A stretch of DNA of 34,185 nt from NCBI GenBank assembly GCA_049515895.1, contig JBEKTQ010000028.1:1-34185 (forward strand), written 5' to 3'. Positions 11,988 through 34,185 of the stretch are shown here, piece by piece. Under the pieces are notes generated by a model, which ran no database searches, was not told the origin of the DNA, and was given only the letters and a program-made list of their open reading frames with translations. Positions within the stretch are counted from its first letter, which is position 1; each line of letters opens with the position of its first letter. The DNA is from Candidatus Bathyarchaeia archaeon. Its GTDB lineage: Archaea > Thermoproteota > Bathyarchaeia > Bathyarchaeales > Bathycorpusculaceae. A program made the translations under genes and the position numbers.

Positions 11988-12524
11988 CTTTGTTTGAGCG
12001 CTGCCTTGTCCCTGTAATAGTTAAAGTTATCTTTTTGGACTATCCAAGTAATAGACTAATTCTTGAGAACATCGCAAGGGCGGTCTGAGCGTTTGCGTTC
12101 CAGGTTTTCCCAATTCATTGGTAAAGTGCGAACAATTCCGTAAGAGGTTAAACAGCTCAGATTTGCCCTCAAATCAAAAAATAAGAGTCATAACCATTTT
12201 ATTCCAATTTCGGGACAAGCCAGCGTGCGCTACAGGAGTACCTCAGCATTTATAATCTTACTAAGGCGCTGGTTGAGACAGCAATACCAAAGATAGGGAA
12301 CAATGAAGCCCGATCTCAGGATCGAGACGTGATATTTGTCGTAATGCATGAGGTTAAGTTAAAGTCGAATATCATAAATTGAGTGCGCGCGCTATACCTG
12401 CTTTAGAGTGAAGTCTGCAAAATCACAAATGGTCGGTGCGTTCAAAAACTTTACCTCTCCGTTTAAGAATCAAGTAATTTACCTAGAAACTGGTCCATTT
12501 TCATTTGCCTAGCGCGTTCGTTGA

Positions 12525-14638: not shown

Positions 14639-14882
14639 GACATCTCACCTGTAAATGACTTAAAAATAAACTGTGCTTCTGCTTGTATCCTATTATTTGC
14701 CCCGTTTGTTCTGTTTCCTAAAGGAAGGCTAACAGTTTTTAAAGAAGTCAACTAATTCCCGATTTTTTGATCGGCCCTAGCGTGAATTGTTGTTTCGAAA
14801 TTGGTCAAAATTATCATATTCCATTTCTTGCTGTCTGTCCATTGCGCGCGCGACGCGTACTATTCGCTGATTTCTTTTTTGT

Positions 14883-16046: not shown

Positions 16047-16112
16047 TCACCAACGTTTTAGATCCTATTAATAATCAGCACACGCGAAAGTTGACTTCAA
16101 CACATTGTGAAC

Positions 16113-16283: not shown

Positions 16284-16365
16284 AAAATTCTCCTCTGTTT
16301 AGCGCGCACTAGTCTAATTCTCTCACATTTTCCCATCATTATGATCAAAACGTCCATTTGCTATG

Positions 16366-17373: not shown

Positions 17374-17493
17374 ATATGATCACCGGAGTAATGGTCACTT
17401 TTTGTTTACATCAGCCAAAGAAATAGGAATCCCCTTTTTGGGCGACTCGACGCGCGCGTGGCTGTTCCGAAATTTGGTCAAAAATGGTTTTTA

Positions 17494-17868
17494 TTAGGCG
17501 ACTTTAGGTATCTGCGGACAATTTCGCGAATTGCATCCGGTTTTGGTCTCTTTGCAAAAGCCACCTTTCTCAAACCTGCGCAGATGCTTTAGGCGGGAGA
17601 AAGGAAGATGGACAAGCTCAATTGAAGAGTCTAAGAGTGCGGCAGAAACCTGCTTCTTAGCTTTAGGCGGGACGTCATAAACATACTTTGGCCTCCCAAG
17701 ACCTGGAGAAACTATTTTTTCCCGCGCTAATACACCTTCGCTTAACAATTTCTTAATATGCAGTTTTAGAGTGTTGTGAGAAAACCCCACCTCATCAAGG
17801 AGATCAGTGAAAGGTTTTGGCTTCCCAATCTTCAAAACAGAGAGAGTTCGCTCATCGATGATATCCAT
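17494..17868 (-). CDS. ArsR-like winged-helix protein with Cys-rich C-terminus
   Basis: FTDLLDEVGFSHNTLKLHIKKLLSEG...GRPKYVY wHTH; C-terminal CKETKTGCNSRNCP. Confidence 0.8.
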   Translation of the reverse strand: MDIIDERTLSVLKIGKPKPFTDLLDEVGFSHNTLKLHIKKLLSEGVLAREKIVSPGLGRPKYVYDVPPKAKKQVSAALLDSSIELVHLPFSRLKHLRRFEKGGFCKETKTGCNSRNCPQIPKVA

Positions 17869-17890
17869 GATTAAACCATGTCAAAACGGA

Positions 17891-17905
17891 CTTAAAACCA
17901 TTTTT
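17891..17905 (-). promoter_or_regulatory. Putative BRE/TATA promoter inside the right inverted repeat
   Basis: Minus strand AAAAATGG-TTTTAAG ending 23 nt before ATG 17868, the usual spacing for a leaderless archaeal transcript. Confidence 0.45.
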
Positions 17906-17936
17906 AGCCAATTTTAGGAACAAACATGCGCGCTAC

Positions 17937-19040
17937 TTAGCGTATAATTTCCTTAAGACCTGATATCAAATGATCCGATATTTCCTCGCTTGTTATTGGA
18001 TATCTGTGCCAGTCTATCCATATGGACTCGTCGCGCAATTTTTCAGCTGTTGGACACTTTCTGGCGAAACGTTGGTAAAAAGGTAATTCATAAAGAAGCC
18101 CAGAATATCCTCCTCCTATGGTTCTTCTAGGTATTCCATTGTCAAGTCCTTTCATTTTAAGGGCTTCTAAGAAACTGTCTCTAGACATACCAGCTTTCTC
18201 ATCCAGAAAACGACACCCAATAATGTAGCAGGCGGACTTCATGTAGCTAGGTGGTTGTGGAAGTTCTAAACAATCAGGAAGAACAGAAGCTATGAACTTA
18301 GCATTTCGAATCTGCCAGTCAACTTGGAACTGTAAGCTATCCATTTGGAGAAGCCCAACAGCTGCTTGGAGGTCTGACATACGGAAGTTAAAACACAGAT
18401 AATTTGCCCCATTTTTTTCTCCATGATTTCGGATGTTTCTACATTTCTCAGCAATCCTATCATCGTTAGTAACTATCATCCCCCCCTCACCGGTGCTTAT
18501 CATCTTGGTCATATCTCCTCCAAGACTGAAACACCCAACAACACCGACGCGTCCAACCTTTTGTCCTTTGTACTCTGCTCCTAACGCCTGGGAACAATCT
18601 TCAATTATAGGAACACCACTGGGAAACTCGTCTAATTCACACGGCATACCCAGCTGATGAGCAGCAACAATACCTTTAAGTGGGTTTTTCCGAAGGCTTT
18701 TTTGCAGCTCTTTTGGATTAATGTTACCCTGTTTGTCTACATCATTGAACATGGGAACGGCTCCAGCGAGTAGTATTGGAGCCACAGATCCGATGTGCGT
18801 GTAGGGTGAGACCGCCACTAGGTCGCCTTGCCCTATCCCGCAAGCACGCAAAGCAACGTAGATGCTGGCAGAACCGTTTGAAACAGCTATCGCGTGTTTG
18901 GCTCCAATATACTCTGCGAACTTACGCTCAAATTCCAGCAAATATGGACCGCCATTAGGTGATCTCCACCAGCCACACAAGCGTCCACTCTTTAACAATT
19001 CTATAACGCAGGACCAATCGATGTTGCCAAGTATTGCCAT
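17937..19040 (-). CDS. DegT/DnrJ/EryC1/StrS PLP-dependent sugar aminotransferase
   Basis: FERKFAEYIG, VSNGS, IEDCSQALG, FS...KMISTGEGGM (PLP Lys), NFRMSDLQAAVG. Confidence 0.9.
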   Translation of the reverse strand: MAILGNIDWSCVIELLKSGRLCGWWRSPNGGPYLLEFERKFAEYIGAKHAIAVSNGSASIYVALRACGIGQGDLVAVSPYTHIGSVAPILLAGAVPMFNDVDKQGNINPKELQKSLRKNPLKGIVAAHQLGMPCELDEFPSGVPIIEDCSQALGAEYKGQKVGRVGVVGCFSLGGDMTKMISTGEGGMIVTNDDRIAEKCRNIRNHGEKNGANYLCFNFRMSDLQAAVGLLQMDSLQFQVDWQIRNAKFIASVLPDCLELPQPPSYMKSACYIIGCRFLDEKAGMSRDSFLEALKMKGLDNGIPRRTIGGGYSGLLYELPFYQRFARKCPTAEKLRDESIWIDWHRYPITSEEISDHLISGLKEIIR

Positions 19041-19491
19041 AACCCCACCTTATTACTTTCTCGTAAATATTGAGTACATAAATAACTCATTTATGAAAAA
19101 TTGGTTCATATTAAGAGTTCATGCGAAACGCTGATAGAAGATACTCGGGGCGGATCTAAGTGAAAAAACGAACAAACAAGCGCGCGGTCGATCTTTGCGA
19201 TAGCCCCGAGTTTTTATAGAGCTTTATTGTGAATCCCTGAGTTTGTTCATACATCTTGTTTCTCTGAATTCTTTCTCTGGTTCAAATATTCCAGCTATAT
19301 GCTGTATTAACTATGTAACAACGAAATATGACACTAGAACCACACTATATTGATCGAGAATACACTTTCCAATTAGGGCACTCTCCAACTCAATTTGCCA
19401 GGTCCATAATTTCGGATAAAGCCTTCAGAAAGCAGTTATTCATGTAGCCCCCACTTTGAATGTCTGATGTTTTACATTCAAGTGCAAAGTT

Positions 19492-20295
19492 CTATGTGTC
19501 GCATTTTTCTTTCGAGTGAATCAGGCGAATTGGTATTTCCCTCAATTTATACAAGAGAATTAGCAAGCTCTCAAGAAGGTCATCCAGTTTTGTCTTTATG
19601 TGGGTTTTTCCTTCCCAGTGACAGGGATGTATCAAGAGCTGAACTCGCCGTGGGTGATTGTTCAGCAGAATAAATAAACTTTTAATTGACCAGAGTCTTC
19701 GCGAGTCATGAACGTAAACATCTCTGAGACGAGGATCATCGGCATTTGCGTAGCCGCGTATTTGTAAGAATGAGTTGGGATTACCTCTAAACGCATGACA
19801 ACTGATGGCCGTGATCTTTCTGCCCAAGAGATTTTCGAGTATGTCTATCTCCATTTTCAGGGCTTCCGCATCGTCCCGCCCGTAACACTCATATTGATAA
19901 GTATCATAGTGAAGTCCGATCTCATGACCGAGCGTACATATCTTTTTCATAATACACACGTTTCTCCCTTCCAAAAGGTTGTAACCCTCACCCGACAGCC
20001 ACACGAAGTAGGTTGATTTTACTCCCATTTCATGTTCAATTTCAGCCATTTTCAAGGCCGGTTCTAGAGAAACATCTATATCGTGGCGAAGAACAAGGTA
20101 GGGAAGGTCTTCTTTTGGTATTTCACCAAACGGAACAACCTTGTAGATTTGACCCAAATATTTCACCAGCTTCACGTAAGTCTTTGGATTGAAACTCGCA
20201 AGTTCCTTGACGCTCGGTTTCTCCACAGAAGCCGCCTCCTGGTTTTTGTTTTTGAAAGTTAAGGTCTGAGCCATTGGTGCATCAATAGCGCTCAA
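19492..20295 (-). CDS. Polysaccharide deacetylase-like protein (WbmS-like); start uncertain
   Basis: LRHDIDVS...AEIE...KSTYFV, GHEIGLHY, LLIHPCHW. Confidence 0.75.
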   Translation of the reverse strand: MSAIDAPMAQTLTFKNKNQEAASVEKPSVKELASFNPKTYVKLVKYLGQIYKVVPFGEIPKEDLPYLVLRHDIDVSLEPALKMAEIEHEMGVKSTYFVWLSGEGYNLLEGRNVCIMKKICTLGHEIGLHYDTYQYECYGRDDAEALKMEIDILENLLGRKITAISCHAFRGNPNSFLQIRGYANADDPRLRDVYVHDSRRLWSIKSLFILLNNHPRRVQLLIHPCHWEGKTHIKTKLDDLLESLLILLYKLREIPIRLIHSKEKCDT

Positions 20296-20548
20296 AGAAG
20301 ATGAGTCTCATGTGAGTACAAGGCGGTCTTCTAGCGAGCGCTAAGCCATATTCTGCCTTCTTTGCAGCTTTCATGGTAAATATATCGACGTGAGTTCCAC
20401 AATTAATCACCGTGTGTTTCTCCTCGATCTTTCGAAACAGGTCATAGATTTCTGGAGAACAGATACGATCTATTGTTGGCCGGCTGTCCCAATAATGAGT
20501 TGCCACACAATCGTCAGGGAGCTTCGAATATGCCAACACTTTGTTCAA
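20282..20548 (-). pseudogene. Degenerate N-terminal remnant of an FkbM-like methyltransferase
   Basis: EIYDLFRKIEEKHTVINCGTHVDIFTMKAAKK resembles the FkbM motif I region (VID.GAH.G.FT..AAK) with key residues lost; only 88 aa. Confidence 0.5.
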
Positions 20549-20705
20549 ACATCGTGTTCGAAAGCAAATGCCCTAGTCAAGGCTACATAATTTCCAGAAA
20601 GTTATAGGGTTGAATCGCAAAATCCGAACGGCATCCTGAAGCATTCCCCGAAGCAAGAAAGAAATCGCCTCGGGCTCAAGCGAGCGAACATCTGCTATGC
20701 CCTTC

Positions 20706-21956
20706 TTAATATTCAACCTGTGCGGGGACTCGGTTCGGACAAAAGATACCACGCGCCATTCTGATTGGAGAATTCAATACATACGCCTGCATGTACTTCT
20801 GTGATATCTTCCTGCTTCTTGATTCCTTGGTCTTCTCAGACACTTGGCTTGCCATGCGAGAAGCGTAGACCCCTGGTCTTGCAGAGAATTTGAAGATGAC
20901 CATGGAATCAAGAAACAAGGGATAATCAAAAAGTTTCAGAGTCGCTGCAAAATCCTCCTCTGTTTCCGTCGGAAAACCAACCAAGAAATGTGTCGAGAGT
21001 CGAATATCCGGGAATCCGCTATTGATTCTTATCATACTTTCTCTCCATTCTTCAGCTGTGTAGGGTCTGCCCATAAGTCTAAGGATCCTATTACTTCCAG
21101 ACTGCACTGGACAATTCAACGCTGATATTCTTCCTGAAGCAAATATCTTCTCCAAATCGGGAAGCATTTTCTTCAAATAGGATGGAAATACTTGATTAAG
21201 AGCGATTTTGAAACTTCTATTGCTATCAATACGGACCATTTTCTCAAGAAGATCGGAAAGTGTGACACCTATGTCTTTACCATAAGCCCCAAGATCGGTG
21301 GCAATTAAAGAAATCGTGTTGTAGCCTTGTTGCAACCCCAGTTCCAAATCAGAAATTATCTTGTTAATGGGTCGGCTTTTGAGTTTACCATACACTAATC
21401 GCTCGCTGCAGTATGTACAATGCCCTGTACAACCTGCAGCGATCCTAATCCAAAACTTGGTGTTTTGTCTGGATCGCGCCCAAAGTCTGTCCCAGTTTTG
21501 CTTTAGGAGAATGAAAGCGCCACCTAGGCAGTCGGCCTTGTCAAATTTGTTCAGCCCAGAAGGTTGGCTTGAAAGAAGCAAATTCTGGGCGCCAGCGATA
21601 TCCAAACTGTCGAAAGGAACCCTAGTTGCTTCCAAGATTTCTTTCAAGGAGCTATTGTCCGTTGATACTACGAAAGGACCATTGTAAATCCCTAACAGCG
21701 ACTCGGGGTTTATCTTTGGCAAGCATCCACAAACGATGAGCTTTGTGGCAGGCTTCATTTTCTCTTGTACTCTCCTTATTGCCAATAGGGAGTCTTTTTC
21801 GCTTCGTTCCGTCAATCCACAAGCCCAGAAAACTACCGTTTCTGCTTGTGATGGACCATTCACGATTGTTAGTCCGTTCTCTCTGAGAAAACGCGCGATA
21901 TTTGTAGAGCTAAGTTGAGCTTCTATGCATCCATTGGTGCCTACGTATACTCTCAC
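20706..21956 (-). CDS. Second MiaB-like radical SAM protein without TRAM domain
   Basis: Cys triad (NGC, WAC, CGC), GCTGHCTYC, VQSGSNRILRLMGR, GFPTETEEDF, FSARPG; GGAGG RBS. Confidence 0.85.
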   Translation of the reverse strand: MRVYVGTNGCIEAQLSSTNIARFLRENGLTIVNGPSQAETVVFWACGLTERSEKDSLLAIRRVQEKMKPATKLIVCGCLPKINPESLLGIYNGPFVVSTDNSSLKEILEATRVPFDSLDIAGAQNLLLSSQPSGLNKFDKADCLGGAFILLKQNWDRLWARSRQNTKFWIRIAAGCTGHCTYCSERLVYGKLKSRPINKIISDLELGLQQGYNTISLIATDLGAYGKDIGVTLSDLLEKMVRIDSNRSFKIALNQVFPSYLKKMLPDLEKIFASGRISALNCPVQSGSNRILRLMGRPYTAEEWRESMIRINSGFPDIRLSTHFLVGFPTETEEDFAATLKLFDYPLFLDSMVIFKFSARPGVYASRMASQVSEKTKESRSRKISQKYMQAYVLNSPIRMARGIFCPNRVPAQVEY

Positions 21957-22182
21957 ATGTTTCTACCTCCGCAAATTCTATTCTATCGTTCTCGAACTCT
22001 CTTGAGCCAAATTCCTTGCGCGCAAGCCTTCTGGCCGCCTCTTGTTCATATACTTTCAATTTTGGATATTTTGTTTTGCAGATAACAGATTTCTTTCTTT
22101 ACGAAGAGAAAAGTTGCGCGCGCACTTTTGTTCAACTCTCAAAGGCTCTTCTTTCATTGTTTCTATTTTTGTAGCGCGCTAA

Positions 22183-23337
22183 TTATGTACAAGGGTTTTT
22201 TGACGTGTCTAACATCTTCTTGTACATCTCGATTAATCTTGCTGCAACACTCTTCAAACTGTAGCCTTCTTCAATTCTTCTTGCGGCAGATCTACCGTAT
22301 TTTTCTCTAGTTTCTTTGCTGGTCAATATCAACTCGAGAGCTTCTGCCAGCTTGGCAGGATTATTTGGAGGGACTATTAACCCGTTTTCGTTATGTATAA
22401 TAACGTGATTTTGGGTTCCGATCACAGGTGTGCCACAGGCTAAGGCTTCCAAAGCGGAGAGTCCTTGCCCGCTAACACCGATCAAATCTGGTCTTACTAG
22501 TACTGTAGCCTTTTGATACCAATTCACTAATTCAGAATGATTAATACTTCCCAAGTATTTGACATTATGGAAACCATTCGCATTTATCTTTAGTCGCATT
22601 CTGTCAATTTGTTTGAAGTATACAGGGTCGTTCACCGGCCCAATTAATACTACTTGAGCTTTCGAATTCAGATATTGCAGAGACTCTAACAATATATGCA
22701 GTCCCTTGAGGGGGTATATTCTACCCACAAATAGAATTAGGTCATTGAGCTTTTGTTCTCTGTCAGGATGAAAGATTTCAGTATCAACTCCCTCTGGCAA
22801 TATTGCGATCTTATTTTTCGGTATGCCCATTTCCTCAAGGACAGCCTTTTCTTCTGGGGAAAAGACTATGTACAAATTTGCAAGGGTTCTGAAAATTCTT
22901 GCAAGAATTTTTCCCATCATGGCATGTCTATTCCCCAAGCCTGGTATTGCCACGCAGTGCATGATTTTTGGCTTTTGAATGGAGCGTGAGAGGATAGGCA
23001 TACTTAGGTCTGCTTCGCCCAGAAAGTGAATTATATCATAATCGTGGAACTTCTTCTTGAAACCAGGCTTTGGCAGTACATTTATTCTTAGAGGGGGGTG
23101 AAGTGGACTTACTTGAAGAAACGGGAAAGGATTTAATGCTGGCATTTTAAAAACTTGGTGATTGATACCAGTTTCGACTTTTTCGCTGTAGATTGGCTTC
23201 CATTTCTTTTCCATATTGAAAGCCATAATGTCAGTGTGAATTCCCGCCTCATTGAGTTCGGTTGACAGAGCTCGAGTTAGTATTTCTGATCCGCCAACTA
23301 TGGGGAAATAGGATGGTGTGACTATTAGTACTTTCAT
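22183..23337 (-). CDS. Glycosyltransferase family 4 (start reassigned to ATG 23337, MKVLIV)
   Basis: GGSE, GVDT, FVGRI..KG, LEALACGTPVI; clearly paralogous to 12525..13637. Confidence 0.88.
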   Translation of the reverse strand: MKVLIVTPSYFPIVGGSEILTRALSTELNEAGIHTDIMAFNMEKKWKPIYSEKVETGINHQVFKMPALNPFPFLQVSPLHPPLRINVLPKPGFKKKFHDYDIIHFLGEADLSMPILSRSIQKPKIMHCVAIPGLGNRHAMMGKILARIFRTLANLYIVFSPEEKAVLEEMGIPKNKIAILPEGVDTEIFHPDREQKLNDLILFVGRIYPLKGLHILLESLQYLNSKAQVVLIGPVNDPVYFKQIDRMRLKINANGFHNVKYLGSINHSELVNWYQKATVLVRPDLIGVSGQGLSALEALACGTPVIGTQNHVIIHNENGLIVPPNNPAKLAEALELILTSKETREKYGRSAARRIEEGYSLKSVAARLIEMYKKMLDTSKNPCT

Positions 23338-23619
23338 ATAGACACCTGCTCGCGCTTCCTTTGAAAGAAACCCTACGCGCCGAGTTCCTTGCACTCTAAC
23401 AATTTAGTCAAACTCAGAGAGGCACGCGCTTTGTTTATCCAGAGGGATGGGAAGGGGGATTCATAAAGATAATATATACTGTCCTTCCCAATTATTCTAA
23501 GTCATAGCGAGCACCAATAGTATACATATATACCAAGTTTTCCGCACCATCCGAAAATCTAGCAGTCATAGAACCGAGAATCTACTTCTTCTTTCGCGTG
23601 CGCCTATTAAACTTACTTC

Positions 23620-24750
23620 TTAGCTGTAGGTTAAGGATCTTTCAAGGAGTTTATTGATTTTCGATTTTTTGATTGTTCTAATTCCTAGGTTGTAGAGTCT
23701 CGAATTAAACTTCTTGTTTACAAATGTTATTTTCAAGTTTCGCCTATATTTTGCGGTCCAATAGGACTTGTATGTTTCATCACCCTTTAAGAAATCATAT
23801 TCTTTCAATCCCTTCTCGATGCTTTTCTCTATAACTTTCCAGTGCAAAAGATTTCCGACGCTATATCGAATGTAGTCAGGATCAAATCCGCTTACCGCAG
23901 CTAGCATCTTTTTGTCATACTCAAAGCTGTATAATCCTGCTATCGGTTCATCATTAATTGCTAAGAAATATAGAGCAAGCCAGCCTCTATCTGCAAAAAC
24001 TTTTGCTACATCTATATAGAAATCACGGACTTCTTGGGTATTAAAAGCCCCACGCATGTTTCTCGATTTCCATCTTTTCTGATTCAAGTCAAAATGAATT
24101 TTCATCGCCTCCTCAACCGAACCAAACTCATGATACCCCTTCAGTTTCACATTTTGAAAATCCTTCTCTAAATTCCTCATGCACCTTCGGAGATTGTTTC
24201 GAGGCTTTTTACCTAGTTCTCTCAGAAGCATTTCGTTGGAGTTTGGAAGAGGCAAGTAATAACAAAATGCCCCTTTTTCTAGTTCGAACTTGAGGGGAAT
24301 ATCCCGGGACGCTTCAGTCAATAGATTTGGAATTACAGAGGTTTCGGGAACATCTGTAAGGTAAATAAAATCCCAATCATCATACTCAACAAGATGATTG
24401 AAGATCATTCTCAAACAATCTGCCTTTCGTTCCACCAACATGAAACCTGTGTAATCTGCTCCTTCTGGCATAAGCCCTCGAGTCCCTAAAGGTTCGACCA
24501 CATCAAAGCCGAATGGGCCAATAAAACCTAAGCGCGATTGTCTTAGTGGTGCAATACCGATAATTTCATTTTTGTCTTCAATGCACAAAATCCTCATTTT
24601 CGTCTCTTGCCCAAAATGCTTCCAATAAGTTGACAGATATTCCCAAGTTAAGTAGACGTTCTTATCTGGGCATCTATTCAAAACATTGTTCCAAATATGT
24701 TTCATTTCGAGAAAATGATTAATGTCGTTAATTTCAGTTACACGAAGCAT
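23620..24750 (-). CDS. GNAT-fold acyltransferase, CelD/BcsL (Acetyltransf_6)-like (start reassigned to ATG 24750)
   Basis: YLTWEYL..YW, GIAPL, DY.GF, RNNLRR..R.L, GFDP...YSVGNLL, YDFLKGDE.YK..W; AGGTGA RBS before 24750. Confidence 0.82.
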   Translation of the reverse strand: MLRVTEINDINHFLEMKHIWNNVLNRCPDKNVYLTWEYLSTYWKHFGQETKMRILCIEDKNEIIGIAPLRQSRLGFIGPFGFDVVEPLGTRGLMPEGADYTGFMLVERKADCLRMIFNHLVEYDDWDFIYLTDVPETSVIPNLLTEASRDIPLKFELEKGAFCYYLPLPNSNEMLLRELGKKPRNNLRRCMRNLEKDFQNVKLKGYHEFGSVEEAMKIHFDLNQKRWKSRNMRGAFNTQEVRDFYIDVAKVFADRGWLALYFLAINDEPIAGLYSFEYDKKMLAAVSGFDPDYIRYSVGNLLHWKVIEKSIEKGLKEYDFLKGDETYKSYWTAKYRRNLKITFVNKKFNSRLYNLGIRTIKKSKINKLLERSLTYS

Positions 24751-24852
24751 TGGATGTTCACCTATTTCTAATAGAAAATACTTGTCAGTATTTGCAGAAC
24801 AGGAGAACCATTTAATCAATCTAATTATCTTTGAACCTATGGGCTTGGAACA

Positions 24853-25799
24853 TTATTTAGCGATTAACAGTCGTATTTTAGATTTGATCTGGACTTTGTA
24901 ACCTAAATCTCTGAGTTTTTTCTCAAGTTGCTCGTAACCTCTGTGATAATTCATAATCATTTCTTCATAATTCCTCTTTTTAGCCAATCGAGTATGATAT
25001 CATATTCACATCCTTCACAATTTAGCTTAAGTACTTGAGCATCCAGCGGCGGAGTTACTGTTTTGACAGAAATTTGAATTGTGTCCTTATTCTCATGACC
25101 GTAAAGACTGGCGTCTGTTGAAGCTTTTGGAACATTGAGAATGGCTTCTCCATCAGTAATTGTTACAGCATAAGGAATAACCCTAACGATCTCTGAAAGA
25201 TTATTTAAAATAATGTTCTTCTCAAGCACTTTTGCAACCCATGGTATAGGCTCGTATGCATAGACTTTCTTTGCTCCCTTCATCGCAAAATATATTGCTG
25301 TATCACCATAGCTGGCACCAATATCAGCGACAATCTTGTCTTTGACATCTAGTGGACAATACTGGTCCTCAATAAAAGTTACATTTAGGTTGCCTAGTGT
25401 GTCAAAATCTTCAGGATCAAAAAAATAATTGATTGTTCTCCCTTTAAAAACAAACTGACAACATCCCTCTTGACTAACCTTGGCGTCAAGCTGTTTGTAG
25501 AGACTTGAGAGTACATATGCCCTGTAAACTGAACGTTCATCAGTAGTCGAAAAGACTATTTCACTGTCACCAATGAGAGCCTTGTATGTATAAATAGTTT
25601 CACACAGAATACGCGAGTTCAGAGATATCTTGATTAGCCAGAACACTAGTTTCCAGTTCGACTTATCTTTTATCTGAAGTTGTATACCATTTCGAAACAC
25701 AACATTAAGGTCTTTTTTCAAACCAGCATATAATAATAATGCTGAAGGCCAATTTTTGGTCGTTCTTATTGTCTCAGCGAAAGACCTAAATGAGACCAT
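24853..25799 (-). pseudogene. FkbM family methyltransferase with a 1-nt frameshift near the 3' end
   Basis: DIGASYGDTAIYF, YAYEP, LKLNCEGCEY. The ORF stops at 24957, but the shifted frame continues NYEEMIMNYHRGYEQLEKKLRDLGYKV...LIAK* to 24853, matching the expected FkbM C-terminus. Confidence 0.7.
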
Positions 25800-26083
25800 T
25801 TTTTTTCAGATACTCCTTACCAAGGGCGCGCGCTAATACGACATCATCTACAGTGAGCTGAACCAAGAGATGCAAAGGAACTCGATTAGCGCATTAGGGA
25901 AGCAGAGCAATGCGAATTGAAACGTAAGGAAGAAGCTGAACAAGAGTGGAAAGAGCTCAAAACCAAAGAAGAACGTCTAAGAAGAGAATGGCTTAAAGCG
26001 GGTGGAATTGAACAATAGCAAATCTCGCGCTTAACTACGCCTGTTTAGAAAAGAAGGGTGCAACCAAGGGGGATAGTTTTCCT

Positions 26084-26887
26084 TTGAGTCTTACATATAA
26101 GGAAGTTATTGAAGCCAACATTGAGCTACATCGTAGGGAAGCCAAGATTTATGACCGCATTCATCAGGAAATTTGGAATAGTCGAGAGCAGAAACGCTCA
26201 TGGAAGATTCTTAGGTTTGCAGTTTCGCAAGTTGAAGGTAACAGATTTAGAGCTCTGGATTTTGGTTCAGGTACGGGTAACGTAACTGGAAAATTGTTGG
26301 ATTTAGGCTTTGAAGTGACAGCCATTGACCTTTCACCTGAAATGAACAAAATACTAAAGCTAAAGTATTCAAAGGATGTTGTGACGAGGAAACTTCAAAT
26401 TTTGAACTTGAATATTGACAAGGTGCAAATGGAAGGTGATTTTGATTTTGTCGCTTGTTTTTCAGTCTTACATCATCTTCCAGACTACATTGGAACCTTA
26501 AGGAAGCTGGCACGTCTAATTAGAAAAGGGGGAGTATTCTATCTTGACTTTGAACCTGCTCCTTTATTTCCAGAAAGAAATCCGCGTTTCATTTTAAATC
26601 GTGCCGTGAAATTTTCTCATTACTTCACAAGGAGTCTTCTGAATCGCCTTTATTTTTGGAGTGTTAACCTTCCCAAACTCGACTACTCCAAAGCAGATGT
26701 GTACGCCGATTCTGGCGATTTAGACTATGAGCTCATCATAAACGTGTTAAGGGAAGAGGGGCTTAGAATAGTTAAATTCTATTCTTATTTTTTTGCTGAC
26801 TCTTGGTTTAGGCTGCCTACTGCCCCATTTTATAAGGTAGTGTCAGTACCTGATAAAACATTGTTGATTGCTAAGAAAACAGAGTAG
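26084..26887 (+). CDS. Class I SAM-dependent methyltransferase (opposite strand to the cluster)
   Basis: ALDFGSGTG, AIDLSPEM, FDFVACFSVLHHLPD. Confidence 0.85.
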   Translation: MSLTYKEVIEANIELHRREAKIYDRIHQEIWNSREQKRSWKILRFAVSQVEGNRFRALDFGSGTGNVTGKLLDLGFEVTAIDLSPEMNKILKLKYSKDVVTRKLQILNLNIDKVQMEGDFDFVACFSVLHHLPDYIGTLRKLARLIRKGGVFYLDFEPAPLFPERNPRFILNRAVKFSHYFTRSLLNRLYFWSVNLPKLDYSKADVYADSGDLDYELIINVLREEGLRIVKFYSYFFADSWFRLPTAPFYKVVSVPDKTLLIAKKTE

Positions 26888-27086
26888 CTTCGACGCCTTC
26901 GTCAGCGATGGCAACACAAAAGGCGCATGACAATATTTCTCACATCTCATCATGTTCCGTCATCACATCCCCTTGCTCTACACTGTGGCGCGCGCTTTAG
27001 ACTTTTCACAAACTTTCAACGAGCCAGCGCGCTAGTCTTTCAAAGATTGGCGCCTTCAAAACACAAAATAGGTTATTGAGCAAAGC

Positions 27087-29210
27087 CTATCCAGAATGCT
27101 GATAAACTAAGCTATTGCCATTGTCGTATACCAAATTTGAGCTGTTAAATACTGAGGAAAGATCAGTGGAATTCCAGGTTAATGTGGAGCCAACTATTAT
27201 TCCATACTCAACATTTAATGTATTCAGATAAATAACACCGCCCGTTCCAATCGTTGTTACGTTGCTCAAAACGGTATAGTTGTAGGTTAAACCATAAATA
27301 AAATCGTTTTGTGACGGTACATCGGCATATATGGGTTGATTTGAATTAATGTTTCTCGCCAACCATTGAGCGCCAAACACACTGTGTGCGTCGGTGTACC
27401 CCATGTCGTAATATAAGTAGAAGGGACTCATTCTGTTCTTGGTTAAAAATGAATAACTTTCATTTTTTGTTATCTCGTATACGAAGCCTGTTTGAAAAAG
27501 AAAATAGGGAACCAAAACCAGCAGCAACAGAATAGAAACCCAAAATATTCTTTCTCGCTTGGACACAATTTTGATCAATGTAGCCCCACCTAGTACACAC
27601 AAAGGAGCCAACAAGAACAACAGTATATGATAAAACCGAGTCATGTTAAGGGTGTTTGCAAGTCCCGGTACTACTACGAGAGACACCAGAAACGCGACAG
27701 CCGTTAGTATGAAGACGAAATACTGGTCTCCAAACTGATGTTTCTTCAATTTTTGCAATGCCAAACCAAGGAATCCAACCGCTAAAAGTGCTTCTGTAAC
27801 ATATGCTATTGCCCGACTAATCGTGTTCCAAATCGAGGGCGCCGATGCTAATCCCAGACCTGCTAATACGGTGCTACCCCGCGAACTTAGGCTGAAAAAA
27901 GAACTAAATTGATCCCGAACGTAAGTTCCGAACAATATAAAACTGTTGAAAGTGGATCCGCTTGATGTGTAGATGTACCATGCAAACATTGCAACTGAGA
28001 AGAGAACAACCAATCCTGCTGTTACCTTTCTGATTGAACTTTTCAAAAAGATCGAAGCGATCATGGATACAAAAGCGAATAACAAGAAAATCTCTGCAAG
28101 TGAATAATGTGACACAATCAGGGCAGCGCCAAAAACCATGAAACATATTACCTTATCAAAGTGCTTCAGTTTATTGTTAAAGAGGATAAGCAATAGCAAA
28201 GCAAAAAACAGTTCAGCAATCATCTGTCTATTTAGAGCTAACATTTCTGTGTAGAACGTTGATTGAGCCATTAACAGAAAAGTAGAAATGAAAGCATATT
28301 TTGCTCCAATTTGTTGTTTCCATACATAGTATAAGGTTAGAGGTACGAGAGAAAAGAGAAATGGAGTGAGTAGCTTGAACATCCAAGTGGGATCTAAGTT
28401 AAGTAGGGTTGAGTATGTCGTTGGGAGAATTGTTATGCTCAACATCGAATTGAATCTGCCAAAAATTACATACCCTGGGAACGGATTGGTTGGACTCCAA
28501 TAGGCATTAGTTTTGGTAATACTAAAGGCGAGGAATTCACCACCGATGTCTGAGCCGAATGTAACTAAATAGGCGGATATTAAAGAAGATTGAAAAAGAA
28601 TCGCGATAGCGCTCATCAATATAGCTACTGGATAAAATTTCGGAGGCAGAAATCTCTTTGACAAAACTCCTACGGAAAATAGCAAGGCTATCAAAATTAT
28701 CGTGAAAAGGAGAACTAGATTATTCGCATAAGAATTTACGATCGTCGCTCCCACGATGCTCAATACGGGAAGAGCCAAAAATAAGAGAACGGATGGAGCA
28801 GGCATGCTGAATGTTTCAGATTCTGAAGCGGTGACATGTTCACCTCTCAGAAAAACTATTACTCCGCCCAGAAGTGTAAGACCGCTTAAAATGATTAGCA
28901 AAGGCATGAGCGAGAGAGGCCGCGGAATGTTGAGTAAGAAAAAGGATTCATTAATTAGTAAACCAGAAAACATCAAGAAGGCTAAACTGAATCCTACAGA
29001 AAAAAGCAAGCTAATAACTAAGCCTACCCTCTTATCCAGCCTTAATAGTTTAACAAAAACAAAACCTGGAACAAAAGTGAAGTAAACAAAGCCAATAATT
29101 TGCCTGGCAACTGGAACATTAAAGAAGATTGTCACGTACAATATGAATTGCAAAAATAGCATGGCTATCAGGAAATTAAATGGTCTGCGTTGGATTATGG
29201 TGGGTGTCAT
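27087..29210 (-). CDS. DUF2206-like multi-pass membrane protein (possible GT-C fold glycan transferase/polymerase)
   Basis: 707 aa, many TM helices, FVPG, SVGFSLAF, G.D...E, SMLSITILP, RQMIAE, SHYS, R.YH motifs. Confidence 0.75.
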   Translation of the reverse strand: MTPTIIQRRPFNFLIAMLFLQFILYVTIFFNVPVARQIIGFVYFTFVPGFVFVKLLRLDKRVGLVISLLFSVGFSLAFLMFSGLLINESFFLLNIPRPLSLMPLLIILSGLTLLGGVIVFLRGEHVTASESETFSMPAPSVLLFLALPVLSIVGATIVNSYANNLVLLFTIILIALLFSVGVLSKRFLPPKFYPVAILMSAIAILFQSSLISAYLVTFGSDIGGEFLAFSITKTNAYWSPTNPFPGYVIFGRFNSMLSITILPTTYSTLLNLDPTWMFKLLTPFLFSLVPLTLYYVWKQQIGAKYAFISTFLLMAQSTFYTEMLALNRQMIAELFFALLLLILFNNKLKHFDKVICFMVFGAALIVSHYSLAEIFLLFAFVSMIASIFLKSSIRKVTAGLVVLFSVAMFAWYIYTSSGSTFNSFILFGTYVRDQFSSFFSLSSRGSTVLAGLGLASAPSIWNTISRAIAYVTEALLAVGFLGLALQKLKKHQFGDQYFVFILTAVAFLVSLVVVPGLANTLNMTRFYHILLFLLAPLCVLGGATLIKIVSKRERIFWVSILLLLVLVPYFLFQTGFVYEITKNESYSFLTKNRMSPFYLYYDMGYTDAHSVFGAQWLARNINSNQPIYADVPSQNDFIYGLTYNYTVLSNVTTIGTGGVIYLNTLNVEYGIIVGSTLTWNSTDLSSVFNSSNLVYDNGNSLVYQHSG

Positions 29211-29633
29211 CAGTAGATCACTTTTCGAATTTGTCTCTTTGATTTGAAACCAATAAATCGAGATTATAAGTAAGTAGTTACAACCAAAATTACCTATGGT
29301 TAGCCATACTACTCAGAACTAGACTCTGGGGACAATACAAAATCCAAAATACTGAGATTTTATTTTCGTAAGTACCATCATGCATAACGCGCGCTTTTAG
29401 TTTACAAGCGCACGCTTAGCGTTGAGTCTTGTACCATAAGACTTAATACGTGCTTTTGTATTCTGGTTACCTCTAAAGGCATGACAAAAAAGCATCACGG
29501 TCAATCAAGATAATGTTTCCAAGCGTCTGCAACCTGTATTTGTGTAGTTCACATTAACACGAAAGTGTATTAAGAATACACAAGTCTCTTAAACCAAAGA
29601 AACCCAAGGAAATGTGAAGGCAGAGCGGTCCCC

Positions 29634-31052
29634 ATGAATCTGAATACTCGATTCATAAAACTGGTACTCATAGCTGTGCTAATTGTAATTCTTGTAATTC
29701 CTGTGGGTTACACTTTACTCACTGCCTCGATCACAATAAACTGTTCCGGAACTGTGGCGTCCTCAAATGTAACAGCGTTAAGCGGTTCAGCACCTGACAT
29801 TCAAGCAGCCGTAAATACCGTCGCGGCTGCAGGCGGAGGCACAGTCCACATCCCTGCAGGAAACTTTGCGTTTAATCCACCGGCAAACGGAATAGGGGTG
29901 ATTATTCCATATACGAATGTTCCAATATCCATTATAGGTGCTGGAATAGGGCAAACTGTTCTAACAGAAACACAATTTTCAGGCTTCTCAACCATGTTTG
30001 CGCGTACTTGGAGCGGGCAGAGTTACAGTGCAGCTTCAGTTCGTATTTCAGGGATATCTTTCGTTGGCTTTGTTTACGCTAAAGACTTGCCGACAGGGAT
30101 AACTGACGATTGGAACACGCAAGGTAATAATGGGATTTCAATAGCTTGTACGCAAGACTTCAGAATAGACCATTGCAGTTTCCAAAACTTTTGTAGCGCA
30201 GCGATAGGCACTAATGCCAACACAGGATCGATTGATTATACAACAATCATTGACAGGGGAGTTATTGACCACTGCACGTTTTCTAACCCATACAAAACAT
30301 TATGTCAGCCTTTCAATGCAACTGGCGTGTATTCTGCTATTGGCGGCTACGACATAATAGTTGTTGGCGATTATTATGCTTGGGACTCGAATATTCAAGA
30401 TTATTTAGGACATTATTACCAGTTTGCTACATTAAACAGCACCAATGATGGAAACCCAACCCAGCTTGAGTATGGAGCACCTGTACCGCAAACAATCTAC
30501 ATCGAAAACAACAATTTTACTGAATATCGACATGCCATATCCTCAACCGGCGGTGGCTACTATGTTGTGCGCTATAATTATTTCAGTATGCCTGCGCAAT
30601 ATAGAGCTGTAGATATTCATGGCAATCCAGGCGGTTCTACTGAAGTTGGTGGTCGTGGACTAGAAGCCTATGGTAACACTATTGATTTAACAAATGAAAG
30701 TATGACTAACGGAGACTGTGCAGCGTTTGGTCTGAGAGGAGGCAGCGGCGTAATCTGGAATAATACAATAATAATTCCGAATGGTGGCAACGTGGCTGAA
30801 GGTTTAGCTTTAGGAATAGAATTCAACAATGATGCTGATAGGTCATTTTGTTTAGTTAATCATCTCTATTATTGGAATAATGCTATTGAAGAACAGAGTG
30901 GTACGCAAATTACGGAAGCACAATCCATTAGTACCGCTAACTATAACCCTGGTTTAAATGTTGGATATTTCCTACGTGCTCCTGATACGACAGATGATGG
31001 ATTCACTTACACGCCTTACACGTATCCGCTTCCTCTAACACTTGAGCCGTAG
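29634..31052 (+). CDS. Membrane-anchored/secreted right-handed beta-helix protein (pectate lyase/GH28-like fold)
   Basis: N-terminal TM, DIQAAVN..AAAGGGTVHIPAG, IIGAG.G.T, repeated IDHC.F / IENN.F / N.I units. Confidence 0.75.
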   Translation: MNLNTRFIKLVLIAVLIVILVIPVGYTLLTASITINCSGTVASSNVTALSGSAPDIQAAVNTVAAAGGGTVHIPAGNFAFNPPANGIGVIIPYTNVPISIIGAGIGQTVLTETQFSGFSTMFARTWSGQSYSAASVRISGISFVGFVYAKDLPTGITDDWNTQGNNGISIACTQDFRIDHCSFQNFCSAAIGTNANTGSIDYTTIIDRGVIDHCTFSNPYKTLCQPFNATGVYSAIGGYDIIVVGDYYAWDSNIQDYLGHYYQFATLNSTNDGNPTQLEYGAPVPQTIYIENNNFTEYRHAISSTGGGYYVVRYNYFSMPAQYRAVDIHGNPGGSTEVGGRGLEAYGNTIDLTNESMTNGDCAAFGLRGGSGVIWNNTIIIPNGGNVAEGLALGIEFNNDADRSFCLVNHLYYWNNAIEEQSGTQITEAQSISTANYNPGLNVGYFLRAPDTTDDGFTYTPYTYPLPLTLEP

Positions 31053-31229
31053 ATGTAACTTAACTTTCAGAGCACAACTACACTCAGTTTCTTGATGCGC
31101 TATAGATTGCAGATTTAGAACCTCGCACGTTGCTATCGACAAATCGAGATTGTAGAGAGTTTTTTTGGTAATCGCGCAGGATTATTGTAGATGCCTGTTC
31201 TTATCGATGAATATCCTCATCATGAGCGA

Positions 31230-32327
31230 TCATGTAACAGTATTTTCCAAATCAACGCGTTGATTTTTGAATTGATTCAGGTTCACAGCAATCGATCGTT
31301 GCTCAATCAGAGACTTCTCGATACATTCCAATAGATTGACGGCGTCACGACCTTGTTCCGGCAAGATAGGAGGCGGAAGATCTTTTTGGATATTCATAAT
31401 ATACCTGCTAATTAGCTTGAAATGAGGAATCATTTTTCGCTTCAACATATAATTTAAATCGAACTTGGTCCATTTCTTCAAAGTCCGTTTTTCATCCGCA
31501 AAAAAACTTCTTGCAACACCACCGGGAGTTAGTGGTGGTAAAGCAGTATTCTCTAGAAAGTAGTCGAAATCTCGATAAATTTGTGCTCGTTTCCCTTTGG
31601 AATCACACATCTCGTAGACTATTTCGGTCTCCTGCGATATCCATGAAAGGTCAATGAGACCTGAATTTTCATTTGATGCTCTTAGCAAAACGGCAAAATG
31701 ATCATACACTGGATGTTTAGCTTTGCCACCAACTGCATAAACCTCTTTAATATCGTTTAAGAAATGCAATTGAAGATAAGCGAGATGGCAACAGACTTCC
31801 CATATAATTCCTCTTTGCTCAGGCATCACCATCCAATCTGAAGCAAGCCCGAGAGCTTTAAGGAGCTCAAAACTCTCTTTTTGCACTGTTTTGAATGAAA
31901 CAAGATCAAAAACTCCTTTATCAATAAGTGCCTTAGCTCTTTCGATTGACGGAAGGAAGATTTGGTTGTGTCCGACGCAGAGTTTACTGTTGTGTTTTCT
32001 AGCTTCAGAAATCATATCTTCACATTGAAATGTGTTAAGAGCCATAGGTTTCTCCACAAGGACAGCAGGAACAGCCTTGACCGCATCGCAAACTATACGT
32101 TGGTGAGTCGAAACTGGAGTGCACACATCGACTAATCCAAGATCTTTGATGTCAAGAAGATCATTATAGTCACCAAAGACTTTCTCCACGTTGAATCTAT
32201 GCCCAAGTTTTTTCGCTCTTTCGAGATTTAGGTCACAGACACCGACAACATTCACGTCCCTAATGCTTTTGAGAACTCTCATGTGAACGTTAGCGATTCC
32301 ACCACAGCCTATAAGCCCGACATTCAT
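31230..32327 (-). CDS. Gfo/Idh/MocA family oxidoreductase
   Basis: GLIGCGGIA, VCTP...H, VEKPMA. Confidence 0.88.
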   Translation of the reverse strand: MNVGLIGCGGIANVHMRVLKSIRDVNVVGVCDLNLERAKKLGHRFNVEKVFGDYNDLLDIKDLGLVDVCTPVSTHQRIVCDAVKAVPAVLVEKPMALNTFQCEDMISEARKHNSKLCVGHNQIFLPSIERAKALIDKGVFDLVSFKTVQKESFELLKALGLASDWMVMPEQRGIIWEVCCHLAYLQLHFLNDIKEVYAVGGKAKHPVYDHFAVLLRASNENSGLIDLSWISQETEIVYEMCDSKGKRAQIYRDFDYFLENTALPPLTPGGVARSFFADEKRTLKKWTKFDLNYMLKRKMIPHFKLISRYIMNIQKDLPPPILPEQGRDAVNLLECIEKSLIEQRSIAVNLNQFKNQRVDLENTVT

Positions 32328-32396
32328 AACAACCCGCCAACGAAGGTAAGTAATTGGAAGTACAAATATTAGCGTGTTAATATGTATGCTGTTGTT

Positions 32397-33299
32397 TCAG
32401 TTCCATGCAGCTCTTGAATCTAGACGGCCTTTAAGAAAGCCGAGCAGCCATGCTATTCTTTTGAACAAATAATGCAAAGGTAATAGAAAAGAGATTTTTC
32501 TTCGAGTTAATCTATAGGCATCTGGGATTCTAAACATTTCAATTGCAATTGCAATTGGTGGCACCATTTTATGAAGGTTAAGCATCCTTGGATTTTTGTC
32601 GAATAAGTAACGCCATGCGTAGCCATGCCAGAAATATTCTTTCCAGAGCGATCTCCAGCTGTCTCTACGGTGCTCATAGAATCTTGCTTCTGATACGTAG
32701 AGCGCCCAACCCTTTGCTCTAATTCTGTCTTCGATGTCGTTATCCTCTCCAGCACCTTTAATTCTCTTGTCAAACCCACCTACCTGTCTTATTGCTTTTG
32801 TTCTATAGATACATCCTGATGCGCCTAATGATTTAGCGTTTGTCTCACCAGTGTGTTGAAAGCTTAAAACCAGCTCAATGTTTTCTAATGTAGCTATTGG
32901 TTCTTGATTCTCCAGAACACCGTATTTTCCTTTGGCTATTCCGACAATTGGGTTTCTTTCCATGAATTCTACCTGTTTCCGGACATAATCACTTGGAAGT
33001 ATCATGTCGCCATCAACCCAAACTATGTAATCTCCTTGAGCGTTCTCAACCACAGCTTGCCTCGCTGAACCTAACCCCTGATTTTCTCGGAAAAACTTGG
33101 CCGTCATTTTTAGTTTGTAAAGATAACTTTTAATGATAGAAATGGTCTTGTCAACACTAAAACCGTCAACAACAATTAATTCGGTACTTTCGTGAGGAAA
33201 ATCTTGGACAACTATGCTTTCAATTGCCTCTTTGACCGTTGACGCTGCGTTCTTTACAACTAATCCTACTGTGACTTTGCAAGCTATCAAATCTCCCAT
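32397..33299 (-). CDS. Glycosyltransferase family 2
   Basis: IVVDGFSVDKT, VWVDGD (DxD), VGGFD, GED. Confidence 0.9.
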   Translation of the reverse strand: MGDLIACKVTVGLVVKNAASTVKEAIESIVVQDFPHESTELIVVDGFSVDKTISIIKSYLYKLKMTAKFFRENQGLGSARQAVVENAQGDYIVWVDGDMILPSDYVRKQVEFMERNPIVGIAKGKYGVLENQEPIATLENIELVLSFQHTGETNAKSLGASGCIYRTKAIRQVGGFDKRIKGAGEDNDIEDRIRAKGWALYVSEARFYEHRRDSWRSLWKEYFWHGYAWRYLFDKNPRMLNLHKMVPPIAIAIEMFRIPDAYRLTRRKISFLLPLHYLFKRIAWLLGFLKGRLDSRAAWN

Positions 33300-33366
33300 C
33301 TTTGAGATAACTCCGAAAACCCGACTATTATTAGGTGATAGTTATCTTCTTATATTTGAAGCGCGC

Positions 33367-34185
33367 CAGTTTGTTGCTAAATTATTTGCATTGACATTTT
33401 CATGCTGAACAGATTTGTATTTGATCGAGTTCTTGTTCTATTATGGAGAAGAATGAAAGTTCTTGCTCCATTTTGCGGAGTTTAAACCTGGACGACATAG
33501 AAGAGACCCTGTCAGAAGCTTACCACCAGGAGGGCGCGGGCAGACCTCCAAGAAAACCCATCGGCATTTTCAAAGCACTCATAGTCAAAAGAGTCAAACA
33601 GATACCAAGCGACAGAGAACTCTATAGGCGGTTGTGGAATGATGAAGATTTAAGAGAAGTCTGCGATATCGAAGAATACGAAAAGCCCTACCATCCTTCT
33701 CAGTTAACACGCTTTAGGAACCGCGTTGGAGTGACCAGGCTTGAGAGAATTATGGATCATCTGGTTGACGAGTTGATTAAAAACAAACTGATTGCTGGCA
33801 AACAGGTGGTTTTCGACGCTACTTTCGTTAAGGCTTACAGCCGGCGTGATCCTCATGACAACAGCAAAGGAGCTTCAGATCCTGAGGCAAGGGTAGGCAG
33901 AAACGGCAAGACTTACGAGCTTGGTTACAAACTGCACGTGGCAGTAGATGCGAAGTCCGAGTTGCCTTTGACTGTTATTGCAGCACCAGCTAATGATAAT
34001 GAGAAGAAGCATGCTCCGACACTTTTTGAGAAGGCTTTGAGGTCGACGAATAAGAGAGTGGAGCTTTTGGTCGCTGACTCTCAGTATTCATGCCGAGGCC
34101 AGAGAGAGCAAGCGTCCAACTCTGGCGTGAAGGCTGTGATTCCTTATCCTGCGAATCAGATGAGGCAGCAGAAGGGACTTTTGAG
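33367..34185 (+). mobile_element. IS5/IS1182-like insertion sequence, left part (truncated by window end)
   Basis: Begins right after GCGCGC (33361-33366) with CAGTTTGTTGCTAAATT and is followed by a transposase ORF; the end position is inferred from similarity to the 17458-17927 termini. Confidence 0.7.
33443..34185 (+). CDS. DDE transposase (DUF772-like N-terminus plus DDE_Tnp_1 core), partial
   Basis: Manual translation: MEKNESS...GRPPRKP...SDRELYRRL...HPSQLTRFRNR...VFDATFVKAYS...DPEARVG...GYKLHVAVD...PANDNE...LVADSQY; open to window end. Confidence 0.88.
   Translation, partial: MEKNESSCSILRSLNLDDIEETLSEAYHQEGAGRPPRKPIGIFKALIVKRVKQIPSDRELYRRLWNDEDLREVCDIEEYEKPYHPSQLTRFRNRVGVTRLERIMDHLVDELIKNKLIAGKQVVFDATFVKAYSRRDPHDNSKGASDPEARVGRNGKTYELGYKLHVAVDAKSELPLTVIAAPANDNEKKHAPTLFEKALRSTNKRVELLVADSQYSCRGQREQASNSGVKAVIPYPANQMRQQKGLL

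Follow-up and report, generated by a model that had tools for sequence, protein, structure and literature searches.

An IS5/IS1182-like insertion sequence at the end of a Bathyarchaeia contig and its relation to a GCGCGC-bounded winged-helix element

Insertion sequences (ISs) of the IS5-type subgroup are described in ISfinder as having a single open reading frame (ORF), a size comparable to that of the element considered here, and a 4-bp palindromic target duplication. To our knowledge, the mobile elements of the Bathyarchaeia are almost undescribed, and a literature search for GCGCGC-associated ISs and for Bathyarchaeia ISs found nothing relevant. IS1272, a member of the IS1182 family from Staphylococcus, is reported to insert at palindromic or stem-loop targets without target-site duplication (PMC5678879). 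The present analysis concerns an IS at the right end of a 34,185-nt stretch of Candidatus Bathyarchaeia archaeon DNA (assembly GCA_049515895.1, contig JBEKTQ010000028.1; hereafter the window), and its relation to a second, 482-bp element in the same window that carries a gene for a winged helix-turn-helix (wHTH) protein. The window is the entire contig C28 of the source genome (G000; 3.18 Mb in 53 contigs), and the truncation of the IS is therefore an assembly artefact rather than biology.

The IS belongs to lineage A of a clade whose members share GCGCGC-bounded ends, and the wHTH element appears to derive from a sister lineage, W, rather than from the window IS. We give this account as a whole, covering the identity of the IS, its mechanism, its relation to the wHTH element, and the hexamer, a probability of about 75%. 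The parts of the IS present in the window are as follows.

33361..34185, plus strand: left 825 bp of the lineage-A IS5/IS1182-like IS, from homology, complete relatives, and the right parts on contigs C34 and C36
33361..33366, no strand: boundary hexamer GCGCGC, from the sequence and related ends
33367..33383, plus strand: core of the left terminal inverted repeat, CAGTTTGTTGCTAAATT (lineage-A consensus CAG-nnn-GTTGCTAAAT)
33443..34183, plus strand: transposase ORF, first 247 of about 330 amino acids (DUF772 and the first part of DDE_Tnp_1)

The left end (33361-33383) reads GCGCGC-CAGTT-TGTTGCTAAATT, with CAGTT at 33367-33371 and TGTTGCTAAATT at 33372-33383. Homology with copies from six other genomes of the genus begins at 33360/33361, and contigs from four peat/wetland metagenome sets contain at least four distinct flanks that meet the lineage-A left end, the break always falling at 33360/33361. 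Complete lineage-A copies of 1121 bp with a 330-aa ORF and the identical end type occur at L004 (genome G004) and L005 (G003). Within the source genome, BLAST located paralogs on contigs C26, C11, C45, and C10, and right parts of the IS occupy C34:1-277 and C36:1-277, each reaching ...AAATTAGCAACGCACTG-GCGCGC. Both of these contigs start within the 3' part of the transposase gene, about 19 nt past the ends of C28 and C26 as measured against the C11 copy, and with a gap of that size the 5' and 3' parts would be in frame. Their first 231 nt encode the transposase C-terminus (THGPNIEKRLYRLRSSIERVNSRLKEQ...), and the C-terminal 76 amino acids, including the SIERVNSRLK stretch, are located there. 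The right end on C34 and C36 reads ...TTAGCAACGCACTG-GCGCGC. The preliminary description of this DNA had anticipated a right end of the form AACA-N5-GCGCGC; the inverted motif followed by GCGCGC is indeed present, in the exact form AAC-G-CACTG-GCGCGC. The ends of C28 and C26 share their final ~130 bases. The assembly broke on the lineage-A IS, and contigs C28, C26, C34, and C36 all end inside it. Inverted repeats at both ends and multiple copies with differing flanks identify the element as an insertion sequence, which in full is probably intact and ~1.12 kb long, with inverted repeats GCGCGC-CAG-nnn-GTTGCTAAAT.

The window ORF, which is open at the contig end, matches DDE_Tnp_1 (PF01609, 55 bits) and, in its N-terminal domain, DUF772 (PF05598, 49.9 bits), both above the Pfam cut-offs; the full-length relative in L005 reaches 87.8 bits for PF01609. 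Residues D125 and D212 are invariant in an alignment of five transposases, and the ERV stretch is on C34. The top NCBIfam match is IS1182 (NF033551), with 127 bits for the fragment and 152.2 bits for a full-length relative, the latter in three stretches of the model and both short of the cut-off of 270; the second is IS5_4 (NF033581) with 121.4 bits, also below its cut-off of 140. Judged from these profiles, the earlier label of an IS5/IS1182-like DDE transposase appears right, yet the protein passes no curated NCBIfam family threshold. By analogy with the family, the transposase would bind the inverted repeats via its N-terminal DUF772 helix-turn-helix region, and the DDE domain would then cut and join the element ends.

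The element resembles the IS5 family in having one ~330-aa DDE_Tnp_1 transposase with an N-terminal DUF772 domain, a length of ~1.1-1.2 kb, and short terminal inverted repeats. It differs in that GCGCGC is invariant at both boundaries, a 4-bp duplication could not be demonstrated, the closest annotated plasmid genes ('IS5 family transposase') are only 24-29% identical, and the IS5_4 cut-off is missed. Its best NCBIfam match is to IS1182, and its palindrome-bounded ends without detectable duplication resemble what is reported for IS1272 (PMC5678879). Unlike IS1182, its score falls far below the family cut-off and the transposase has ~330 residues against a 488-position model; unlike IS1272 with its variable stem-loops, its clade is bounded by one fixed 6-bp palindrome.

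The clade occurs almost exclusively in Bathyarchaeia: of the 80 loci obtained in a scan at one genome per species, nearly all bear the title Candidatus Bathyarchaeota or Bathyarchaeia, and Methanomethylicia and Woesearchaeota account for one each. At least five lineages are present (A, B, C, W, and a C12 type), along with a longer variant of B. Transposases of different lineages are 28-75% identical, W and A being 46% identical. Terminal inverted repeats of ~20 bp are common to all lineages and follow the scheme GCGCGC-N5/6-(T)GTnnC-nAAAT; the core and the five or six bases next to the hexamer vary from lineage to lineage. Ends and lengths of the lineages other than W are listed below.

Lineage A: end CAG-nnn-GTTGCTAAAT, ~1121 bp
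Lineage B: end TG(G/C)(C/T)T-TGTCCC, ~1100-1113 bp, in the source genome at C10:118397-119505
Lineage B, longer variant: end TGCC(C/T)-TGTCCCTAAAT, ~1275 bp
Lineage C: end TAGG(C/G)-TGTTTAGAAATT, ~1215 bp
C12 type: end ATAAG-TGTTCATTAATTC, on contig C12 of the source genome

The 116 related IS ends that we gathered comprise 25 from type A, 81 from type B, and 10 from type C, and a perfect GCGCGC adjoins 97 of them. Two observations that the preliminary description had named as incompatible with its reading, a right end lacking the inverted motif and copies lacking GC tracts, were not made. In an alignment of 15 ends, one row of which was entered one base short, hexamer positions 2-6, G13, and T14 never vary, and near-invariance holds for the first G, C17, and T23. 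Flanks beyond the hexamer are near-random and lack a direct repeat.

The lineage-A copies on C28 and C26 are mosaic, with 5' parts only 79% identical ahead of the identical last ~130 bases, while the 3' parts on C34 and C36 differ from each other by few bases only. Such mosaicism suggests recombination between IS lineages or collapse of the assembly graph. A rearranged lineage-A copy at G000:C11:14100-17100 opens with an internally deleted derivative retaining both ends, after which come 1.7 kb of other genes and then the 3' transposase part behind a GCGCGCGC tract; ~100 nt are duplicated. At its left end the copy adjoins a W-type solo end, and position 14124 holds a B-type end.

The second element of the window is described by the following features.

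17452..17933, minus strand: wHTH element, 482 bp with hexamers included, putatively non-autonomous with lineage-W ends, from its recurrence and the W pattern
17458..17499, plus strand: left inverted repeat of the wHTH element (GTGGCTGTTCCGAAATTTGGTCAAAAATGGTTTT...)
17886..17927, minus strand: right inverted repeat of the wHTH element, also upstream of the ORF start
17494..17868, minus strand: 124-aa winged-helix ORF, Lrs14/Sta1-like below the family cut-offs

Its inverted repeats span ~42 bp, and the right end (reverse complement of 17911-17933) reads GCGCGC-ATGTT-TGTTCCTAAAAT. The resemblance between this element and the left end of the IS, first noticed in the preliminary description, is genuine: the IS end matches the right end of the wHTH element at 19/23 positions and the left end at 17/23, with the same spacing, and between the two wHTH ends the agreement is 18/23. 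One might see here a fortuitous match between an IS end and the unrelated promoter or operator of a small regulator gene, given that the right inverted repeat is directly upstream of the wHTH start codon and could contain a promoter. Among the 1142 GCGCGC-anchored 23-mers on both strands of the source genome, however, the probability of at least 13/17 matches after the hexamer is 2e-5, so that 0.023 such matches are expected; 10 were observed, including IS copies and wHTH-type ends. Moreover, the 482-bp unit recurs as a discrete block amid unrelated flanks in three other genomes (94% identity in G074, 75% in G086, and 82% in G016, where it is truncated), transposable elements of the miniature inverted-repeat type (MITEs) without an ORF bear the same inverted repeats, and an IS with the same ends exists. 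On these grounds, and on the fit to the lineage-W pattern given below, we consider a chance match refuted, its residual likelihood being negligible.

The lineage-W end is GCGCGC-RTG-NN-TGTTCC-KAAA. Searched with at most one mismatch, the pattern GCGCGCRTGNNTGTTCCKAAA has matches in 32 of 120 genomes of the genus, and the reversed control has none. Inverted pairs of W ends fall into three size classes: 15 pairs of 131-173 bp (by our own reading), which are MITEs and were confirmed at 14/14 fetched loci; three of ~480 bp, which are wHTH elements; and five of 1044-1078 bp, which are IS-sized and of which four are degraded. A 1067-bp W IS in G074 (C23:16914-17981) has an intact 328-aa DUF772 plus DDE_Tnp_1 gene. 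Its ends read GCGCGC-GTGGT-TGTTCCGAAATT... and GCGCGC-GTGCG-TGTTCCTAAATT..., and the left end of the wHTH element matches the first of them at 22/23 positions. With W ends, no transposase, a passenger Lrs14-like gene, and behavior as a mobile unit, the wHTH element is best read as a non-autonomous W derivative. The 19/23 match to the window IS would then reflect family-level conservation of ends between sister lineages, and the cognate partner is therefore W rather than the window IS.

The preliminary description had instead cast the window IS as the autonomous partner, its transposase recognizing the shared GCGCGC-N5-TGTT.C.AAA ends and moving the wHTH element. The equal spacing and the 19/23 and 17/23 end matches agree with such a role, as do the membership of both elements in one IS clade and the fact that the only full-length clade transposase genes found in the source genome are of lineages A and B. 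Both wHTH ends nevertheless fit the W pattern with 0 mismatches, where the lineage-A end of the window IS would by our own reading need three; on an A-end profile they score -6.3 and +0.6 bits and the end of the IS itself 31.6 bits; G074 holds the intact W IS together with the 94%-identical wHTH element; and the A and W transposases share the low identity given above. We therefore consider the partnership with the window IS improbable.

Several points weigh against assigning the wHTH element to W. Its right end matches the second end of the G074 W IS at 19/23, no better than it matches the window IS, and support for W comes from the lineage-diagnostic positions (RTG and TGTTCC) together with the left end. 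A W IS absent from a 53-contig assembly may merely be unassembled, and cross-mobilization of the wHTH element by A or B transposases may be conceivable. A tblastn search of the source assembly found no intact W transposase, only A and B copies with 42-50% identity and remnants on C39 and C16. The W remnants of the source genome are the following three.

C9:4370: W end beside an ORF that shares residues 1-11 with the W transposase
C39:7472-7534: last 21 codons
C16: 31-residue match

Because only W remnants are present there, the wHTH element is probably immobile in the source genome, unless an A or B transposase cross-acts. The wHTH element and the 131-173-bp elements resemble MITEs and other non-autonomous derivatives of ISs in having the inverted repeats of autonomous lineage W and no transposase. 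Unlike usual MITEs, the 480-bp form contains a passenger gene for a winged-helix protein, which does not derive from the transposase. What emerges is an IS clade of several lineages whose boundary is a fixed palindrome, together with its MITEs and an unusual non-autonomous form carrying a wHTH gene; simple end patterns can now be used to annotate these elements in metagenome-assembled genomes, whose assemblies they break.

The 124-aa ORF scores 34.8 bits for Lrs14 (cut-off 90), 28.3 for Sta1 (cut-off 80), and 19.9 for Pfam HTH_20 (cut-off 27). The idea that it is a truncated transposase was rejected (comparison E = 4.1). The window copy is the sole complete, uninterrupted ORF among six full-length copies of the element, whose states are listed below with that of a seventh, cut copy.

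Window: ORF complete and uninterrupted
G074: N-terminus out of frame
G086: C-terminus altered
G000:C12: no ATG start
G000:C26: in-frame stops
L232: in-frame stops
G000:C18: cut by the contig end, open as far as read

Between the source genome and G086 the ratio of nonsynonymous to synonymous substitution rates is 0.15 over 108 codons. Taken with the states of the copies, this ratio makes it seem that the wHTH gene is selected while the element is active and decays afterwards. Related wHTH genes lie within lineage-B-ended elements on G000:C12, G000:C26, and the metagenome contig L232, where the wHTH element abuts a B-type IS.

In the diverged copies at G000:C26:4757-5238 and L232:436-910 the same codon, the one following residue 43 (...LQRLTG* and ...LDSLAE*), is an in-frame stop, and in both the reading frame continues past it; this is either coincidence or recoding. 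A 574-bp W-ended element at L256 (G067:C2:7069-7642) contains a different 93-aa ORF without a Pfam match, and W-type ends may therefore carry several kinds of small passenger gene. The G074 wHTH element (L014, G074:C65) is flanked by a multi-copy 1.3-kb element (1-1337) and a multi-copy 280-bp element (2151-2433); the start of the former matches G000:C45:5669-5897, the site of a further DUF772-type ORF. A contig from metagenome run X1 (depth 30, shorter side 24 letters) joins position 17936 to 33361, skipping 15,424 bp, so that the triplet after the right hexamer of the wHTH element leads directly onto the hexamer of the IS left end. The depth of the left flank lends no support to a deletion allele in this population, and the join may come from another strain with both elements adjacent.

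With regard to the hexamer itself, we lean towards GCGCGC being the outermost base pairs of the elements, travelling with them and leaving no detectable target duplication, with new insertions that would sometimes land in pre-existing hexamers. This is consistent with four junctions where one flank has uninterrupted homologs and these homologs lack a complete GCGCGC at the breakpoint.

Lineage-B IS on C10, left: 5 genomes and 2 paralogs, breakpoint gtgtc/TGGGTG
Lineage-A IS on C10, right: 6 relatives, at most GCGC (in one relative)
MITE on G019:C40, right: 13 paralogs, breakpoint ggtcagtc/taagacg
Intact W IS of G074, left: G019 and G075, aligned to the junction and continuing TTAGCTCATGCC and TAGTTTATGTCG (alignments read by eye)

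The hexamer could instead be a pre-existing palindromic target, duplicated either as 6 bp or as a central 4-bp CGCG with G/C flanking context, in which case the elements proper would begin at CAG, TGG, or RTG. This reading has in its favor that 459 tracts are present in the source genome, mostly element-free (19 adjoin ends by the strict motif) and clustering in the IS-bearing contigs C28 and C10, and that IS1272 of the IS1182 family is reported to target palindromes (PMC5678879). Across 112 ends, deviations from the hexamer by position, outer to inner, number 9, 3, 4, 1, 0, and 0; the outermost base departs from the hexamer at one end only in 6 loci and at both ends in one, and the inner CGCG stays intact, which would fit a flanking-context base. 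The contrast between 1 deviation at the inner three positions and 16 at the outer three is, on the other hand, not expected from uniform decay of a duplicated target, and where both ends of an element were readable no deviating hexamer recurred as a direct repeat at the opposite end. Together with the four junctions, this makes a duplicated target the less likely reading, and what likelihood remains falls to a mixture of the two, for example palindrome replacement as in IS1272. The targeting of GCGCGC put forward in the preliminary description is unproven and, by the same four one-sided comparisons, rather disfavored.

Other observations count against the hexamer as terminus. All four empty-site comparisons are one-sided, the other flank never being homologous, and an outermost base that is the most variable is unusual for IS termini. 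Abutting elements have exactly one hexamer between them in 2/2 cases (L088, B end-GCGCGT-A end; L060, A end-GCGCTC-W-like end), as a duplicated GCGCGC target would predict. On G000:C26 a (GC)5 tract without an IS lies beside a module whose G003 homolog abuts a lineage-A IS. At L232 just GC separates two ends, and (GC)n tracts can slip in length. Because of such slippage, tract length is not decisive, and arguments from it (at L091 and at the right flank on C10) were dropped as such.

No direct repeat beyond the hexamer was found that could represent a target-site duplication. The flanks of 41 ISs, from the 80 loci, were compared by BLAST with the source genome and the collected loci and yielded no clean filled/empty pair; only the left flank of L089 matched the source genome (C1), and its intergenic part could not be aligned. 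Searches of the genus with the wHTH region, the C10 island, the G074 wHTH locus, and the G074 W IS locus likewise gave no clean pair, the elements always lying between a conserved and a non-homologous flank or inside nests of other repeats. Since they sit at the edges of variable segments, they are not simple insertions. Across positions 14186-34185, four peat/wetland runs contained no joint that skips the wHTH element and, among the loose ends listed, no empty allele of the IS site; this means little, because the data are contigs. Abutting lineage-B ends, sought by tract length, had no matches in the 120 genus genomes. In a metagenome scan for them, 106 of 118 matches were a gap-0 palindrome and only L232 was relevant. 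All displayed gap-0 copies are the 22-bp palindrome GGGACAAGGCATGCCTTGTCCC, which often lies within GTA...TAC and is common in many unrelated metagenomes (loci L131-L250); it is apparently from unrelated organisms and unrelated to the Bathyarchaeia elements.

GCGCGC is not over-represented across the source genome, where a first-order Markov model predicts 579 occurrences and 571 are present. The window has 23 tracts in 34 kb, nearly all intergenic, or 6.7 per 10 kb against 1.44 genome-wide, and C10 has 19 in 20 kb. Examples in the window are at 3880, 4963, 9451, 12385, 14844, 16302, 19180, 22018-22179, 25826, 26988-27032, and 29388, and many are TA-flanked, giving palindromes of the TAGCGCGCTA kind.

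The preliminary description had seen in these elements a mechanism for building and diversifying the glycan locus of the window. The data are compatible with this, and it stays a conjecture: what bears on it is circumstantial, namely the co-occurrence in the window of a decayed solo end and a B-type MITE with the wHTH element and the A-type IS. Of the 11 tracts in the C10 island, 7-8 fall, by our own reading, at homology breakpoints of modules shared with other genomes. For the glycan genes, matches in the genus are coding hits of 65-85% identity, whose ends are uninformative on the tracts. A further scheme, which we think rather unlikely, is that the hexamers are both termini and scars of the transposon clade, the scars being preferred re-entry points, and that the glycan islands function as systems of cassette exchange that DDE transposons drive. 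As the hexamer is palindromic, its two terminal copies form a direct repeat, and through recombination or slippage between the copies the element would be lost and a single GCGCGC left behind. Later insertions would favor these scars, as IS1272 favors palindromes, and repeated cycles would leave a field of GCGCGC-delimited modules. These cycles may explain the tracts in nearly every intergenic region of the glycan locus and the coincidence with breakpoints on C10. If the hexamers are insertion targets or scars, they would record the past turnover of gene cassettes in surface-glycan islands.

Two further features of the window relate to the clade.

11996..12228, no strand: MITE of 233 bp, bounded by lineage-B ends (GAGCGC-TGCCT-TGTCCC ... 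GGGACA-AGCCA-GCGTGC), whose subterminal sequence resembles that of the wHTH element
14780..14812, plus strand: decayed solo W-type end (GCGTGA-ATTGT-TGTTTCGAAATTGGTCAAAAT), a weak nhmmer match (E = 3.4), adjoining the GCGCGCGCG tract at 14844-14852

The MITE has 76-83% matches, starting at 11989, 11998, or 12016 and ending at 12225 or 12233, in G130, G094, G019, G075, and G074, and its ends score 20-26 bits on a B-end profile.

Elsewhere in the source genome, a 1.5-kb segment at C10:122068-123582 (also C6:396-1828) encodes a 465-aa beta-CASP/metallo-beta-lactamase RNase. It is 84-96% identical across many genomes of the genus, against 65-80% typical of other genes, is present in two copies in several of them (G093, G124, and G125), and has its right edge at a GCGCGCGC tract. 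Five contigs of 2.7-3.7 kb (C48 and C50-C53) have a G+C content of 55-60%, compared with 40-47% elsewhere, and may be contamination or rRNA-type sequence.

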